From IMG/VR virus record IMGVR_UViG_3300025099_000107, positions 1 to 27,752 of that record: 27,752 nucleotides of DNA. The stretch is one strand, 5' to 3'. The translations under genes were made by a program, and so were the position numbers. The DNA comes from a virus. Taxonomy: Duplodnaviria > Caudoviricetes. Shown here piece by piece: positions 11,041-21,566 of this stretch (positions are counted from its first letter, which is position 1; each line of letters starts with the position of its first letter). The notes under the pieces were generated by a model. It did no database searches. It was given only the letters and a program-made list of their open reading frames with translations, and was not told the DNA's origin.

Positions 11041-11796
11041 ATGGCTATAGAAACATTACAGACATTATCGTATAACAATGACAGCCAAGGCTGGCCGTCT
11101 TTCTATACTTACTATCCTGATTACATGATAGGAATGAACAGTTTCTTCTATTCTTTTAAAGGTGGTAATTTATATAGACACAATACAAACACCCTAAGAA
11201 ATAATTATTATGGTGTTCAAGGATCCTCTTCAATTACAGGAGTATTTAATCCTAAGCCAACTTTAGATATAAAGTTATTTAAGACGATGTCTTTAGAAAG
11301 TGACGCAAGCTGGACGGCTACAAATATTAAAACAGATCTTAATTCTGGATCTATGCTTAATACTTATTTTGAGCAAAAAGAAGGAGAGTGGTTTACATTT
11401 ATTAGAAGCAAGTCTGATACAGTAAACTGGAAGTTAAGATCAGCAAACGGACTAGGCTCGGCTACAATAGTTGCTGGCCCAGCAAACGCAACAGTTATAA
11501 CATTTACAGAACCTTTTGGAAGTATACTTAGTATAGGAGATGCGATCTATGCAAAGACCACGCCAGAGTTGGTAGGGTATGTTACAGCAATGAGTGGCAC
11601 TACGATCACTGTAGACGCATCCGCACAAGGGGCGTATATCCCTGTACAGGGTGACTTTATTTTATCTTATAAAAACAGCGTTGCTGAATCGCATGGTGTG
11701 CTAGGTTATTACATGGAGTTTACGTTAACTAACGACAATACAACGCCAGTTGAACTCTTCTCTGTAGGTAGTGACATCATGAAAAGTTATCCTTAG
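11041..11796 (+). CDS. Probable C-terminal part of the tail nozzle/stabilisation protein, encoded separately; 251 aa
   Basis: TLSY....GWPSFYTYYPDYMIGMNSFFYSFKGGNLYRHN...KLFKTMSLES...FEQKEGEWF...GYYMEFTLTN...ELFSV resembles the block that normally follows GGYDP..DEY within nozzle proteins. Confidence 0.6.
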   Translation: MAIETLQTLSYNNDSQGWPSFYTYYPDYMIGMNSFFYSFKGGNLYRHNTNTLRNNYYGVQGSSSITGVFNPKPTLDIKLFKTMSLESDASWTATNIKTDLNSGSMLNTYFEQKEGEWFTFIRSKSDTVNWKLRSANGLGSATIVAGPANATVITFTEPFGSILSIGDAIYAKTTPELVGYVTAMSGTTITVDASAQGAYIPVQGDFILSYKNSVAESHGVLGYYMEFTLTNDNTTPVELFSVGSDIMKSYP

Positions 11797-15221: not shown

Positions 15222-18200
15222 ATGAACGACGAAATATTACAAAATATTTGGAATCAACTTACGGCAGATGGAATGACCAATAGTGATTTTGAAACTTGGA
15301 AATCCAATTTTGCAGGGAGTGAAGATATACAAAAAAATGTTCATGGATATTTGCTTGAAAATAATCACACTGATAGTGATATTGATACTTGGAGCTCTAA
15401 TGTAGGGTTAAAAAAAAAAGACGAATCCGACTTATCTGTTCTGGAAAAGGATTTGGTGTTCGGTACGAACGAGGACGAACAAGATGGTTCTTCGGATGGT
15501 TCAGAAGTAACAGATGAAGAAATACCAGAAGTAGTACCTGAAGTTTTAGAGACTGAAATAGAGACTGAAACAGAGACTGAAACAGAGACTGAAACAGAAA
15601 CTGGAACCGAAAATGTAGTTGTAACAGAAGAAGAGAAAAAAACTACTGACGATAAAAAACAATTTTTAATTTCTCAAAACATAAATATCGATGCTTTGTT
15701 TAGACAGGCTCGATTTGGAAACCCTTCTACTGGACAAGGCGGTGATTTTACAGGCACTGAAGAAGAGTTTGTAGACAGATATTACGCTACTTACTTAGTA
15801 GATAAAGGTATTACTAAAACTCAAATAGATTTTGATTCTGCTATTTTAAAACCAAAAGAGGATAGAGAAGCAACAGAAGGATACGAAACTGATGTAGCTG
15901 AAACATTACTAGATAGAGTAAAGATAGATCCGACTGATTATAAAGCATGGGAAGAAGAGACTACGAGAGAAGAAAGTAAAGCTTTTAAGTGGGTAAAAAA
16001 TCTTTTGACTACAGATAAAACTGAAGCTTTCAATAAAGAGCAAAGAGATTTTGAAAAGATCGCTAGTTATAAAGCTTCAGTATTAGGTAAATTAAATGAT
16101 GATATTAATTTGCTCAACACCAAATTAGAACTAGCTAAAGATCCTACAGATATATTACAGCTACAAAACATAAAAGGCCAACTAGAAGCTAAGTACATAG
16201 AAGAACTACAACAGTTAAATGGATTAGCAAATTTATTTCCAACTTTAAAAAAGTATACTATAGATAGAGATCTAGAACGAAGAAAAAATATTTATGACGC
16301 TGCACATTCAGATGACAATGTTGGAGAAGTTACAAGTGAGGTAGGTAATGTATTAAAAACTATACCTGTGGCCTTAGGAGATTTTACAATGGGTAGTTTA
16401 GCGTTTATTACTTCAGGAGCTGATCAGGCTTTATCTGCTGTAGGGTTTGATCAAAAAGGTTTACTAGCTGGTTTAACAGAAAGGTTTTTGGATGGACAAG
16501 AAAGTTTTGAACAGTTTATAGATCCTGTACAGCGTAGTGGAATTATAGATGGTAAAGAGGTAACGGTAAATGGAAAAGAATACATAGTTACATACGATGG
16601 TTCAGTGTTAGACAGAAAGTCTCATGTTAAAATGAACGGAATCATATCTGATGATTTGATAAAAGAAGTGCAAGAGCGTTCAAAAAAAGTTTTAAATTCA
16701 GACACATTTTTTGATGGAGGGGGCGTAGTGTCTTCTGGTTTTACAACTATGGCTAATTTAATTGCACTAATTAGAGGGGGTAGAGGCTTGAGTAAAGTGT
16801 TGAAAGTTTCTCCAGGAGTTGGTATGGGGTTAGCATCTTACGGAAGTTCTATGGCTAGTGAAGTTGAAAGTATGAGAGCTGACTTGATGGCTGCGGGATT
16901 AACAGAGAAAGAAGCTATGGATAAAGCCATAATAGCTGGTAACGCGATTGCATCTTTAGACGGATTGTTTTCAGGTTTAGCTGGCGGGAATCAAAAAGTA
17001 TTATCAAATTTGGCAGGGTTTAAACAGCAGGTAATTAACATAGTAAAAAAAGATGGAGCTAAATTTAGTAAAGATGAGTTAAAAAGAAAGCTTAAAGATT
17101 TAGGAATAGAAATGGGTAGGGAAACTGTTATAGAAGAGCTTCCTGTTTTGTTTTCAACTAAAGCCGTAAACGCAGCTGTAAATTATAGTGTTGGCAGAGA
17201 AGTAAGAAGCGCAGAAGTGTCTCAGGCAGAAATTTTAGAAACAGTGATACTAACATTAGGTGCTACGGGTACATTAGGAGGTAAAACGTTAATAAATAAA
17301 AACACAAGACTTGATGCTTTAAGATACGTTGGTATGAATATAAACGATCTTCAAGGTACTATAGATCAGCTTGTAAAAAACGGAGAGATTACAGCACAAG
17401 AAGGACAAAATGTTTATCAAGAAGTTTATGATATGCAAGCGGCTGAATTAAAAACTAAAGGAACTATTACTAATAGTAATAACATGTTAGAGACCTCTGA
17501 TTTGTTACAACAAAGACAGCAATTAATATCTCAAAGAGAAGGTTTAGAGGGCCCTCTCAAAGAAGATTTAGATAAAAAAATAGAAGACGTTGATCAGCAA
17601 ATAAACGAAGTAGTTAACAGAGATAAAAAAGAAACTGAAGATAAACTTAAAACAGAAAAAGATTCTATTCAAGAAGAAATTACTGTAGCGGAAGCAGGTA
17701 AGAATGAAAAGGCAGATGGTTTTGATAAAGCTCCAGTTTATAAAACAGGAGGTAAACCTGTGTTATTTCATGGTTCAACTAAGAAGTTTACTGAATTTGA
17801 TATTGAAAAAATTGGATCTGGGGCTGATGCAGGGACAGCCAGAGGTATATTTTTTACTAGCGATCCTGAAGTAGCTTCATTTTTTTCTAAAGAAACAGGT
17901 AGTTTTAAAGGTAATGTAATACAAAGTATTAAATCATTAACAGGAAGGTCAGAATCTACTATATATTCAGGTGCGTTAAACACTGATAACATTAAGACTG
18001 TAGATTTTAATGGTCAGCGAACTAGCCCTGAGTTTGATAAAAACAAAACTATTCAAGAAGCTTTTGATCAAGGATTTGATGCGGTAATTTTAAAAAATAT
18101 TGTAGATGGTAATAATAAAGTTCAAGATGTTACTGTTGTAAAAGATATGAGTGTTATTGAAGAGTTCAAAGACACTCAATTGTCAGGAGATAAATTAATT

Positions 18201-21200
18201 AAAAAATATAACCAAGATGCCATTCAAAAGTCAAGCGCAAAGGCGGTGGATGATAAAAAATCTACCAGCCGTAGCAAAAAGGTGGAGTCGCCTGTACTCG
18301 ACTCCAAACTTACCGGAAAGAGTAAAGCCAAAACCGAAAACAAAACTAAAACGAAGACCCAAGAGGAAATAGATTCTTTAAATAAAAAGATAGAAGAAGT
18401 AAAAGTTGATTCTAAAATAAACAGACCAACAAAAGCTGCTCGAATAAAAGAATTAAACGATAAAATTTCTAAACTAAAGGCTCAAGCAGAAACAGAAACA
18501 AACATTGAAGAGGAAGTAGAGTTAACTGAAAACCAAGATTTAGATAGAGACAGTAGGTTAAAGGAGCAAGAAGTAAAAGAGGCGCAAAAGGAAGAAGGTT
18601 ATACTGTGGAAAAAGAAGGCTCTAGTATTGATATTGATATAGCCGGCAAAAAACGAACAATTCCGTTGCCATTTTCTAAAACAATTAACAATGCAAAAAG
18701 AACCTTAAAAAGATTATTTCAGTCAGCTGGTAATTTACCAAAAACTTTATTTAAAGCACAAGAATCTAAAAGAGGAGAATATAATCAAATAGTAGCTAGA
18801 GCTGAAAGAAAAGCTTCTGAATATAACAGGTTGTTTGATAAACTTAGAAAACAAAAAAATTTAGATGAAAACACTTTGATTAAATTGAATGAAGATTTAG
18901 GTAAAGTTTTAAAAGGAGAGTTGAAAATACAAGATATTAATTTTAAAAATAATAAAGGAGAAACAAAAGCTATTAGTTCTAGACTTGCTAAGTTGGTTAC
19001 AGAAATGAGATCTGATATTGATGCAATGTCACAACAAATATTAGAATCTCCAAACATAGCAAAAAAAGACGCTAAAAAAACAATAAAAAGTCAAATAGGT
19101 AAATACATAACCAGGTCTTATAGGTTGTTTGAAGGTAAAGTTAAAGGTAAAAAATTTAAAGAAACTTTAAGTGAAGATGTTTTAAATGAAGCTAGAGAAT
19201 TTTTTAAAAAAGATGAAGGTTTTATAAAAGAAGTTAAAACAGAATCTAAAAAAACTAATGAAAAATTTGAAGATGCCTTAAAGAGGATGACGGAAACAAA
19301 AATTAACGACTTATTAAATCAAAAAATTTCAAATACTGATTTTTTAAATAGGTATGTGGGGGACGGTAAAAACTTGAATATATTAAAAGAGAAAAAAGAA
19401 GTTCCGCCCGCTATAAGAAAATTATACGGAGAAATAACTGATCCAGTAGCTAATTATATTAACACTATGATTAAGACAGGTACTTTACTAACTCAGGCTA
19501 ACTTTGTTCAATCTGTATATGAAAATGGTATAGGTAAATATATATTTACAAAAAATGACCCAAATAGACCAAGTGATTCTGTAGAAATAGCTTCTCCAAA
19601 TAATGAGAATTATAAACCCCTAGATGGTTTGTATACATATCCTGACATAAGAGATGGTTTATTTCCAAGAAAAGGATTTTTATTTCAAAGGCCAGAAGGT
19701 AAAGCAGGTTATCTTTATGATTTGTATTTAAAAGTAATGATGGCGTACCCTAGAGCTGCTAAAACAATTCTTTCTCCTTCTACGCAAATTATAAACTTTG
19801 TTTCAAATGTTAATTTTGCTATTGTTAATGGTCATTTACCTGTATCAATTGTTAATGGAAGAGTAAATTTTGATGCATACAAAAAAGCTGTTCAAGGAAC
19901 TTCGGCTATTATAACAAGTAAAAGTAATAAAGAAATAGCAGATAAAATAGAAACTTATAATAAATTAGGGATTATAGATCAAAGTGTTGATGTTAATGAA
20001 TTAAAAGATTTACTAAATCAAAAAGACGGGGAAAAAGATTTATTGGAAAGGTTTTCTCAAGATCCTACTTACAGATCAAGATGGACTAAAAGTAAATTTA
20101 ATCCAAAAAATTGGTACAAGTTTGCAGAAAAATCGTATAGAGTTGGTGATGATTTCTGGAAAATAATGGGTTATGAAATGGAGTCACAAAACTTAGCTAA
20201 AGTTTATTTTAATAAAGACTTTGATGCTATGGTCAAAGAAAGTAATGTGCTAAAAGAAAAAGGAAAAAATGAGGATTCTAAGAAAAGACTTAAAGATTTA
20301 AATGAAGAAATAAAGCAAATACAAGAAGAGGCTGCCGAAATGGTAAAAAACCAATATCCTAATTATTCTCGTATTCCAAAACTAGCAAGATTTTTTAAAG
20401 GTTCACCGTTTTTAGGAAACTTTATATCTTTTCAAGCAGAATCATACAGAACCGCTTACAATACAGTTGCTAATTCTTTTAACATGCTAGCAAAGGGTAA
20501 TAAATTAATTAATGATAAAACTAATGTAGATAAAGGTAAAAGACTAAGAAAAGAAGGTCTTAGAAAAATTGCTAATACAATGTCATATATTGCTTTTAGA
20601 GACGGAGCTTTCTACGCTTTAGCTACTAAAGTAGGTGGAAAAGTTTTGGGAGGGTTCTTACCTTTATTTGGGTTAGGATTTGATGATGATGAACCTGAAG
20701 AAGAAGCGCAAACTTTTGGTCAGCTAACAGCTAAAGAACTCGCGATTAGAAATTTTGTTTATAAATGGCAAAAAAATCAAAAATTAATTATAACTAAGGC
20801 TGAAGATGGTCAATTAAATTTTGTAGATGCATCTACATTTGATCCTCATCAATTATTAGAAGCTAATATTAGCGCTTTAATGCAGTCTAAAAATTTTACT
20901 GATGCTTTGAAAGGCGTTACTGTTGAACAATTAGAAACCTTTGCTGGTATAGATTTTGTTTTACAAGCTGCATTAGATGCTAAAGCTAATTATGATCGAC
21001 AAGGAAAAAATAGAAGCATTATAAAAGACGCTTTGCAGCCATTTTTTAGAAGAGCTTTTTTACCAGGAGCCATCTTACAATTAGAAGACGCATTTGGAAA
21101 AGGTATATTGTCTGGTAGAGATTTAACAAAATCTAAAATTGCAAAATTGGTAGGTTATAGGGATTATGAGATTGATGTTTCTAGGCAGTTGTACTTCAAT

Positions 21201-21566
21201 CTACAGCCTGAAAGAGAAGCTCAAATGTTGTCAGAACAAAAATATTATAATGATGTAAGAAGTTTTATAAGAAAAAATCAGATTACGGAGGAGGGAGTTG
21301 CTGATCTAATTAAGTTGTATGAAAAAACAAACCAACAAAGAAAAGAAAGTTTTCTGTATACATACGAACAAATTAGAGCCGCTTTGCTTTTAGGAGTAGA
21401 ACCTGAAAAAATAGAAAGAACACTTAGGGGAAGAAAAATTAATTTTAGTAAAAAAGAAATTAATGCTATAGTCCAAGCGGCATATATTCCTTTAAAAGAA
21501 ATGCCGAGTGAATTTAGACCTGATAAAAAGAAAAAATCTCAAACTGAAAAAGATCTAGGCTTATGA
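15222..21566 (+). CDS. Giant internal virion / ejection polyvalent protein with an ADP-ribosyltransferase-like (ART-PolyVal-like) domain, 2114 aa
   Basis: Acidic N-terminal linker and a Gly/Ala-rich membrane-tropic segment (~16340-17300). ART-like block LFHGS..FTEFD...GIFFTSDPEVA..F...GFDAVILKNIVD at ~17750-18170. Long helical C-terminal region with a P.Y..IP..RFFKGSPFLGNFISFQAE motif. Confidence 0.75.
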   Translation: MNDEILQNIWNQLTADGMTNSDFETWKSNFAGSEDIQKNVHGYLLENNHTDSDIDTWSSNVGLKKKDESDLSVLEKDLVFGTNEDEQDGSSDGSEVTDEEIPEVVPEVLETEIETETETETETETETGTENVVVTEEEKKTTDDKKQFLISQNINIDALFRQARFGNPSTGQGGDFTGTEEEFVDRYYATYLVDKGITKTQIDFDSAILKPKEDREATEGYETDVAETLLDRVKIDPTDYKAWEEETTREESKAFKWVKNLLTTDKTEAFNKEQRDFEKIASYKASVLGKLNDDINLLNTKLELAKDPTDILQLQNIKGQLEAKYIEELQQLNGLANLFPTLKKYTIDRDLERRKNIYDAAHSDDNVGEVTSEVGNVLKTIPVALGDFTMGSLAFITSGADQALSAVGFDQKGLLAGLTERFLDGQESFEQFIDPVQRSGIIDGKEVTVNGKEYIVTYDGSVLDRKSHVKMNGIISDDLIKEVQERSKKVLNSDTFFDGGGVVSSGFTTMANLIALIRGGRGLSKVLKVSPGVGMGLASYGSSMASEVESMRADLMAAGLTEKEAMDKAIIAGNAIASLDGLFSGLAGGNQKVLSNLAGFKQQVINIVKKDGAKFSKDELKRKLKDLGIEMGRETVIEELPVLFSTKAVNAAVNYSVGREVRSAEVSQAEILETVILTLGATGTLGGKTLINKNTRLDALRYVGMNINDLQGTIDQLVKNGEITAQEGQNVYQEVYDMQAAELKTKGTITNSNNMLETSDLLQQRQQLISQREGLEGPLKEDLDKKIEDVDQQINEVVNRDKKETEDKLKTEKDSIQEEITVAEAGKNEKADGFDKAPVYKTGGKPVLFHGSTKKFTEFDIEKIGSGADAGTARGIFFTSDPEVASFFSKETGSFKGNVIQSIKSLTGRSESTIYSGALNTDNIKTVDFNGQRTSPEFDKNKTIQEAFDQGFDAVILKNIVDGNNKVQDVTVVKDMSVIEEFKDTQLSGDKLIKKYNQDAIQKSSAKAVDDKKSTSRSKKVESPVLDSKLTGKSKAKTENKTKTKTQEEIDSLNKKIEEVKVDSKINRPTKAARIKELNDKISKLKAQAETETNIEEEVELTENQDLDRDSRLKEQEVKEAQKEEGYTVEKEGSSIDIDIAGKKRTIPLPFSKTINNAKRTLKRLFQSAGNLPKTLFKAQESKRGEYNQIVARAERKASEYNRLFDKLRKQKNLDENTLIKLNEDLGKVLKGELKIQDINFKNNKGETKAISSRLAKLVTEMRSDIDAMSQQILESPNIAKKDAKKTIKSQIGKYITRSYRLFEGKVKGKKFKETLSEDVLNEAREFFKKDEGFIKEVKTESKKTNEKFEDALKRMTETKINDLLNQKISNTDFLNRYVGDGKNLNILKEKKEVPPAIRKLYGEITDPVANYINTMIKTGTLLTQANFVQSVYENGIGKYIFTKNDPNRPSDSVEIASPNNENYKPLDGLYTYPDIRDGLFPRKGFLFQRPEGKAGYLYDLYLKVMMAYPRAAKTILSPSTQIINFVSNVNFAIVNGHLPVSIVNGRVNFDAYKKAVQGTSAIITSKSNKEIADKIETYNKLGIIDQSVDVNELKDLLNQKDGEKDLLERFSQDPTYRSRWTKSKFNPKNWYKFAEKSYRVGDDFWKIMGYEMESQNLAKVYFNKDFDAMVKESNVLKEKGKNEDSKKRLKDLNEEIKQIQEEAAEMVKNQYPNYSRIPKLARFFKGSPFLGNFISFQAESYRTAYNTVANSFNMLAKGNKLINDKTNVDKGKRLRKEGLRKIANTMSYIAFRDGAFYALATKVGGKVLGGFLPLFGLGFDDDEPEEEAQTFGQLTAKELAIRNFVYKWQKNQKLIITKAEDGQLNFVDASTFDPHQLLEANISALMQSKNFTDALKGVTVEQLETFAGIDFVLQAALDAKANYDRQGKNRSIIKDALQPFFRRAFLPGAILQLEDAFGKGILSGRDLTKSKIAKLVGYRDYEIDVSRQLYFNLQPEREAQMLSEQKYYNDVRSFIRKNQITEEGVADLIKLYEKTNQQRKESFLYTYEQIRAALLLGVEPEKIERTLRGRKINFSKKEINAIVQAAYIPLKEMPSEFRPDKKKKSQTEKDLGL
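15549..15608 (+). repeat. 12-bp tandem repeat encoding (ET)n
   Basis: GAGACTGAAATA, 3x GAGACTGAAACA, then a degenerate GAAACTGGAACC. Confidence 0.9.
18217..18372 (+). CDS. Nested +1-frame small basic protein, 51 aa (MPFKSQAQRRWMIKNLPAVAKRWSRLYSTPNLPERVKPKPKTKLKRRPKRK)
   Basis: Runs ATG 18217 to TAG 18372 inside the giant gene. Leader TAAATTAATTAAAAAATATAACCAAG resembles other starts in the window. Host-frame third positions become anomalously GC-rich over this span. It resembles small MPFKS.AQRRW phage peptides I recall. Confidence 0.7.
   Translation: MPFKSQAQRRWMIKNLPAVAKRWSRLYSTPNLPERVKPKPKTKLKRRPKRK

Follow-up and report, generated by a model that had tools for sequence, protein, structure and literature searches.

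Results

A small open reading frame nested in the giant virion gene

The window, that is, the whole 27,752-nucleotide stretch analysed here, is a 27.8-kb fragment of a phage record found in marine metagenomes, with an estimated completeness of 46%. Besides the giant gene considered below, its genes show matches to virion structural PHROGs, a crassvirus muzzle domain, a helicase, and a primase; the muzzle match concerns the C-terminal domain (PF25729, E 5e-12) of a 251-aa gene at 11041–11796. In G044, a close relative that is complete, the capsid protein matches those of Elemovirus, Maribacter phage Panino, and Cellulophaga phages at 24–53%, so the host of the phage is likely a flavobacterium. 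The features at the locus are as follows.

15222..21566, plus strand: host gene for a giant protein of 2114 aa, predicted to belong to the virion (as a cargo or ejection protein); it closes the structural module.
17754..18137, plus strand: ART-PolyVal domain (aa 845–972) of the host protein, inside an insertion of ca. 160 aa just 5′ of the nested gene.
18196..18198, plus strand: in-frame TAA of the nested frame, six codons 5′ of the ATG; boundary of the ORF, which restricts frameshift models.
18201..18216, plus strand: leader and putative initiation site; A-rich, unstructured, and without a Shine-Dalgarno (SD) sequence.
18216..18374, plus strand: host-frame linker (aa 999–1051), the putative shadow of the nested gene; basic here, acidic in relatives.
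18217..18372, plus strand: nested gene of the MPFKS family (PHROG 1375-like), +1 frame, 51 aa; predicted helices at residues 6–15 and 17–26, conserved W23 and LP32–33, then a K/R-rich tail.

The nested ORF (18217–18372) runs from ATG to TAG in the +1 register of host codons 999–1051, so that its own start and stop lie wholly within another ORF. Its product is identical in sequence to the 51-codon peptide of the original prediction, with the same 18 basic residues (10 K and 8 R), one E, and no D. The increase in G/C-ending host codons, from which dual coding had been suspected, was confirmed: 25 of the 53 host codons over the nested span end in G or C, compared with 17.8% elsewhere in the gene (binomial 8e-7), and the highest count in any other 53-codon window of the gene was 18. 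The linker lies just after an ART-like domain, as had been noted, and this domain matches ART-PolyVal. Because aa 1285–1656 of the host protein match the virion structural protein phrog_22602 (E 6e-19), the label "ejection protein" appears reasonable from this match and the position of the gene.

When the host gene was shuffled synonymously 1000 times, 41.6% of the shuffles yielded a +1 ATG ORF of at least 51 aa somewhere in the gene, and 1.1% yielded one at exactly this site. ORF length by itself is therefore weak evidence for a nested gene, and the former figure speaks for a chance ORF or an untranslated DNA or RNA element; the evidence that counts for a gene comes from conservation and selection, as judged from comparisons of the sequences. 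A second +1 ORF (17704–17874, 56 aa) was rejected as a gene because a stop interrupts it in the close relative L212.

Around this junction, the giant gene has a mosaic structure. The insertion carrying ART-PolyVal (ca. 17679–18167) is also found in L212 and is missing in the close relatives L083 and L084, and L003–L008 share the same N-terminal half with different C-terminal halves that begin just past the nested stop.

Selection on the two reading frames

We compared the window with its closest relative (L001). Over the nested span, the nested frame contained 13 synonymous and 4 non-synonymous changes, and the host frame 1 synonymous and 17 non-synonymous changes. Substitutions at nested codon positions 1/2/3 numbered 3/1/13, while the host codons 3′ of the span showed the usual third-position excess (284/192/483). 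The same pattern was obtained over 28 disjoint same-length pairs, which had been selected for low divergence over the span and some of which have recombined flanks: pN/pS was 0.17 in the nested frame, 1.33 in the host span, and 0.44 in the host flanks, and substitutions at nested positions 1/2/3 numbered 95/90/236. Host pS was 7.5% over the nested span and 46% in the flanks. Thus, the nested frame is under purifying selection, and synonymous change in the host frame is suppressed. Suppressed synonymous change and a conserved ATG were among the signs that the original prediction had said should be looked for in relatives.

A chance ORF or untranslated element accounts for neither the bias of nested-frame substitutions to third positions, nor the existence of a conserved protein family, nor the fact that copies vary in length yet keep the frame. 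The selection pattern in practice already excludes a chance ORF, and we regard the probability of this reading as negligible. The ORF at 18217–18372 is almost certainly a real gene judging from this pattern, and very likely one that has been overlooked by annotation, as had been proposed for a dual-coding gene that gene callers miss.

The host linker showed no conservation of its own. Its residues follow the nested codons, and the DAIQ motif of the host is the shadow of MPFK. The suggestion that DAIQK-like motifs of giant phage proteins result from such an overlap was thus borne out, the same motif being found in unrelated hosts. The host frame also appears constrained, mostly being kept acidic. 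The net charge of the host span had a median of −11 compared with +7.6 expected from codon usage, and the span was more acidic than expected in 103 of 105 copies, which are related to one another and hence not independent. The host span of the window is an exception (+7 compared with +8.4 expected).

The window is one of only two of the 105 copies without a significantly acidic host span. Its linker (18216–18374) has become basic instead of acidic by substitutions that are synonymous for the nested peptide (+7 compared with −8 in L001 and −9 in L083).

Start signals of the nested gene

The leader in the window has A at positions −3, −6, and −11 to −16, no SD sequence, and no predicted structure, in agreement with the original description of an A-rich, SD-less leader like those of genuine starts. 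Its start score exceeded that of 98.8% of control +1 ATGs. We examined 102 nested starts, which had no SD sequence and almost no predicted structure, against 8138 other +1 ATGs. A was present at −13/−12/−11 in 88/88/84% of the nested starts compared with 35/40/40% of the controls, at −6 in 80% compared with 38%, and at −3 in 57% compared with 33%. The median minimum free energy of the leader was −0.5 at nested starts and −4.5 at control +1 ATGs. In Flavobacterium johnsoniae, A at the same leader positions raises initiation (PMC6847099). On this comparison, the nested starts bear the Bacteroidota-type A-rich leader of efficient F. johnsoniae starts.

Among 107 nested copies, a stop directly precedes the ATG in 10, leaving little room for a frameshift fusion. 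A programmed +1 frameshift would give a truncated host protein with a basic C-terminal tail and no separate protein. Frameshifts are frequent in phage capsid genes, and +1 was the only nested frame found (0 in +2 among 120 loci), both of which count for this reading. Against it, besides these stops, Met1 is invariant, as in the free-standing copies; initiation-type leader signals are present; and the upstream regions share no 7-mer other than A-rich words. We consider a frameshift product very improbable, and the nested gene very probably has its own initiation, judging from the leader and the start codon.

The motif TAnnTTTG, which we take to be the Bacteroidota-type promoter motif, was found in 6 of 97 upstream regions and in 15 of 194 control windows. 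Since an internal promoter of this type was not enriched, internal initiation on the late mRNA is the presumed route of expression. An RNA run (X20, share 0.15) contained two partial contigs, one of them from a relative.

Occurrence in related phages

A peptide-based scan of IMG/VR gave 599 matched stretches, 458 of which were confirmed, and the best 80 of the 458 were kept. A long host frame covered the peptide in the same +1 register in 70 of these 80 loci. Of the other 10, 8 were free-standing copies belonging to that phage group, one formed the N-terminal part of a 425-aa protein, and one was a GC-rich stand-alone gene. Every start was ATG, and the nested or stand-alone peptides were 39–62 aa long.

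Because loci picked with the peptide are biased by the query, we added retrievals that were blind to it. The N-terminus of the host protein retrieved four loci: the nested gene was present at the corresponding junction in all three complete host genes, and the remaining contig stops short of it. A query with short patterns from the host C-terminus found no relatives. Among 80 loci picked by the helicase, the gene was present within the locus itself in 43, of which 37 copies were nested and 6 stood alone. Of the 37 loci without it, 14 were short contigs left out of the whole-record search; the 23 whole records gave two more positives, both nested, bringing the total to 45 of 80 loci or records (39 nested and 6 stand-alone). 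The 21 records without a match were mostly fragments, but G066 (100%) and G053 (94%) are near-complete, and a wider profile also found no match in eight of these records that are whole or nearly whole. No copy was found in 50-kb stretches of Panino and phi38:1. The gene is therefore conserved in relatives retrieved without the peptide; it appears common but not universal, and dispensable in some relatives.

In 45 of the 46 positive records, there was one match per record. A 105-kb record, G016, has two giant genes, each with a nested copy (L098 and L099); it possibly represents two joined genomes.

Copies were also found in cultured phages. In elemoE_6-9C, a 42-aa nested copy lies inside KNV12_gp18 (NC_055854.1, 52512–52640), and MW202828.1 carries one inside its 3859-aa gene; both are unannotated. 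All 68 records of cultured Flavobacterium elemo phages match residues 1–29 at 99% or more, and among the matches listed the annotation at that site is the host gene only. The elemoE giant gene (L286) contains a further basic +1 ORF of 40 aa at about host codon 891 of KNV12_gp18; its leader is likewise A-rich, and the ORF had no match to the family profile.

Three placements of one gene

The gene occurs in three placements: nested in the giant gene, nested in a gene located between the portal and capsid protein genes, and stand-alone. The second nesting site is near codons 26–70 of this gene between portal and capsid, which would be a scaffold gene from its position. Where the stand-alone form was checked next to a giant gene (L048 and L065), it begins 1–2 bases past the stop of that gene. 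Unranked sampling of 120 loci that carry a variant motif, scored by mechanical thresholds, gave 62 copies nested in +1, 58 alone, and none in +2; two of the nested copies look like GC-rich chance frames, and several "alone" copies are cut loci. Of the 62 nested hosts, 41 match the scaffold-position gene and 8 match giant genes, and a few long hosts in higher-GC phages match neither.

In a helicase tree of 62 rows, which left out four labelled loci without a recovered helicase, nested copies were spread throughout, and 10 of the 11 stand-alone copies fell in one 12-row group. Stand-alone copies thus form mostly one clade within the nested ones, and in this tree nesting looks ancestral locally. 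Of 26 alignment starts, 14 fell between −150 and +450 relative to the ATG, and of 34 alignment ends, 10 fell between −150 and +300 relative to the stop; since the pairs are not independent, this hints weakly that the nested gene may be a recombination hotspot.

In L286 (27513–27641), L284, L161, L176, L182, L183, L328, L354, L358, and L359, a subtype was found whose two helices each bear one conserved Cys. Giant-nested as well as scaffold-nested copies belong to it, which points to movement from one host gene to another. The Cys pair is possibly a disulfide staple or a metal site.

The MPFKS family and the origin of the overlap

Searches of Pfam, PHROG, and NCBIfam with the window peptide gave nothing significant. 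It belongs to the MPFKS family by profile and by the pattern M-P-F-K-S-x-A-Q ... P-x-x-A-x-x-W ... L-P. The family profile matched 4233 clusters at E ≤ 0.001; in the best 150 of the 4233, 134 begin with the motif at residue 1 and 63 are at least 100 aa long. About 820 and about 2200 IMG/VR stretches were estimated for two motif patterns. Of 82 aligned members, 48 match PHROG 1375 (function unknown; best E 4.8e-6), while the window peptide alone had no match to it at E ≤ 0.01. The nearest named ESM Atlas cluster, DUF3008 (PF11450), scored 0.84 against the tool's mark of 0.9, with 160 of 256 features and the family on 37% of members. The DUF3008 model had no match in Pfam searches of members, in one of which the control was also silent.

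Domains found in some long members are InPase, cupin, ParB-like, AAA, and DUF5661; for most of the long members, Pfam gave no match. N-terminal fusions of the motif to varied domains are common among the representatives; in L071 (4001–5278), from a 198-kb record, the motif is the N-terminus of the 425-aa protein, which has an HExxH-like motif.

Stand-alone homologues in phages, which the original prediction had mentioned, do exist. Free-standing annotated copies were found in Streptomyces phage FlowerPower and phage 023Pt, and Synechococcus and Prochlorococcus phages also carry free-standing copies. Unannotated ones lie in gaps of the cultured cyanophages S-CBS2 and P-RSP2 and of phage C75C1 (L409:5001, L410:5001, and L411:5001). 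A distinct stand-alone subfamily with a six-residue insertion (L206–L283) is located on chromosomes of Acidobacteria, Chloroflexi, Gemmatimonadetes, and Betaproteobacteria. No conserved neighbours were found for the chromosomal stand-alone homologues of soil Acidobacteria and others.

By the phylogenetic-distribution (Keese-Gibbs) criterion, as given in PMC8227390, the new, overprinted frame is the more narrowly distributed one. The nested frame is not more restricted than the host frame here. Since the peptide is free-standing in unrelated phages and soil bacteria, the frame of the peptide predates, on that criterion (PMC8227390), the frame of the host linker. The term "overprinted" in the original prediction is thus probably reversed: the peptide would be the wider-spread frame and the host linker its shadow. 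Other parts of that interpretation held, namely a real dual-coded gene with stand-alone homologues and an overlap that explains the host motif.

We suggest that the small gene existed first and that flexible linkers of virion genes acquired it on more than one occasion; the overlap would then reflect capture of an existing gene with later local escapes, a direction that the tree does not establish. Read in the −1 frame, a K/R-rich gene with third-position G would give an acidic low-complexity linker, which the host proteins may tolerate.

Alternatively, as the original prediction implied, the peptide arose de novo by overprinting in an ancestral giant virion gene and escaped later to become a free gene. 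In line with this order of events, nested copies are spread over the helicase tree and are also present in Elemovirus, which is more distant, and stand-alone copies are confined mostly to one inner clade; the stand-alone copy L056, with 1 stop in the old host frame compared with 4.4 expected (P 0.02), fits as well. However, such a relic of nesting (a stop deficit in the old host frame at P ≤ 0.05) was found in this one of 14 stand-alone copies and was absent in the other 13. The family is far wider than any host gene, extending to Streptomyces, Synechococcus, and Prochlorococcus phages and to soil bacteria; the hosts of nested copies are non-homologous; and the linker lacks conservation of its own. 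A peptide tree of 215 rows and 43 columns, unrooted and with too few columns to count captures, requires 21 placement changes. We therefore view de novo origin as rather unlikely and favour capture of an existing gene.

Structure and function of the product

The structure model has short helices at residues 6–15 and 17–26 (pLDDT 77, pTM 0.40) and an unstructured basic tail. In the family, the median net charge is +15, and 55% of the tail is K/R. Foldseek of the model against BFVD and PDB gave no match at E ≤ 0.001, the family profile against PDB sequences gave a best E of 0.3, and a complex prediction of the G044 major capsid protein with residues 1–40 of the peptide scored 0.00, a value that counts in neither direction.

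A portal, terminase, capsid, head protease, or minor head gene lies within two genes of the stand-alone phage copy in 18 of 47 loci, or in 18 of the 25 with a named neighbour; these are raw counts, and head genes are the best-annotated phage genes. In L207, L357, L307, and L312, the stand-alone copy is directly between portal-like and scaffold-position genes. Some stand-alone phage copies adjoin DNA-metabolism genes or lie near a holin.

Because of the nesting in head and cargo genes, the head neighbours, and a charge near +15, a DNA-binding head protein is our best guess for the product, to which we give an even chance on this indirect evidence. The nested ATG would be used on the late structural mRNA to give a 6-kDa basic protein, a predicted two-helix module with a K/R tail that likely binds DNA in or for the phage head. 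The tail would bind DNA or neutralise charge, the N-terminal module would serve as a docking element, and the peptide may be packaged into the head. The chromosomal copies without shared neighbours seem to fit a general nucleic-acid binder better than a capsid-specific part, and together with the patchy absence of the gene they would count against a capsid-specific, essential role.

These chromosomal homologues, in bacteria without capsid genes, and the small size and pI of 12 of the product would also suit a real gene whose protein acts on RNA or ribosomes in the cytoplasm of the infected cell (host takeover, or ArfA-like rescue or rRNA binding), with the late operon serving expression only. 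Opposed to this are the head-module neighbours and the results of searches for the ribosome-rescue factor ArfA. The ArfA model PF03889 was found in 0 of 5 phage records at E ≤ 10 with a positive E. coli control, there was no ArfA match for 44 and 30 members against Pfam or 82 against NCBIfam, and the family profile did not match ArfA, including solved ArfA chains, among PDB sequences. ArfA was accordingly rejected as a candidate, and a cytoplasmic role of the product seems unlikely.

The product could instead be a transient helper of head assembly or cargo loading that binds the acidic scaffold or the linker of the giant protein, perhaps the same linker in which it is encoded, and then leaves or is degraded before head maturation. 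The identified nested hosts are only scaffold-position and giant virion genes, the acidic bias of the host span accompanies constraint on both frames, and the motif is an N-terminal tag on varied domains, all in line with such a helper. On the other hand, the linker of the window has lost its acidity while the peptide is still conserved, and the acidity may merely serve the solubility of the linker. We hold a transient helper to be fairly improbable and retain the DNA-binding head protein as the preferred reading.

A broader proposal treats the MPFKS module as both a DNA clamp and a portable tag that addresses proteins to the head. Its gene would have been captured repeatedly by acidic linkers in virion genes that are unrelated to one another ("reverse overprinting"), with the −1 frame doubling as the acidic linker, and in other phages the tag would be fused to enzymes for capsid loading. 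We put this forward tentatively, as a speculative possibility.

Discussion

Nested genes are established in few dsDNA phage systems, with spanins as the main case considered here. Like the embedded spanin gene pair Rz/Rz1 of lambda, the gene described here is a small gene of dsDNA phages that lies wholly inside another in a shifted frame and is missed by automated annotation, and spanins likewise exist in embedded and separated architectures (PMC6139136). In that survey, no spanin family was found to mix the embedded form with others (PMC6139136); in contrast, the MPFKS family mixes embedded and free forms, with two non-homologous hosts. The nested peptide also has no lipobox or transmembrane segment and is not part of a lysis pair, and its host is a 2100-aa virion gene or a scaffold-position gene. 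An o-spanin (Rz1) was rejected as a candidate: the peptide has no Cys or hydrophobic signal, and its host in the window is the 2114-aa virion gene.

Gene D of phiX174 encodes a scaffold. Gene E within it is, like the present case, a same-strand internal overlap in a phage gene, but in classic overprinting the nested frame is new and narrowly distributed (PMC8227390), whereas here it is the wider and more constrained one. The host gene with its ART-PolyVal domain recalls the polyvalent proteins, and one fusion of the motif carries InPase, a polyvalent-protein domain predicted to be packaged in virions (PMC5512222). The passages of that work on these proteins describe no nested gene, and the word "overlapping" is absent from its main text (PMC5512222). 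Nested copies are missing from the annotations checked. In the published literature, covering main texts and few subscription journals, we found no description of the MPFKS family or of the overlap.

T4 internal proteins carry an N-terminal capsid-targeting sequence, and the P22 scaffold has a coat-binding helix-turn-helix. They resemble the present family in being small basic head-associated proteins or modules and in the use of a short N-terminal tag on varied cargo; since no sequence or fold similarity was found, the analogy is functional only.

One family thus combines free-standing copies with nesting in two virion genes that are unrelated, and about half of the unranked sample is nested. 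The recurrent DAIQ/NAVQ linker motif of giant and scaffold proteins is explained as a reading-frame shadow, and the family may offer many natural replicates of an overlap that originates by capture of an old gene instead of invention. Its product is a small phage protein, abundant and uncharacterised, and the copies in cultured Flavobacterium elemo phages make it immediately accessible to testing; existing virion proteomics may bear on the nested gene. If the proposal of a portable head-addressing tag were true, thousands of aquatic phages would hide this module inside their scaffold or giant cargo genes.
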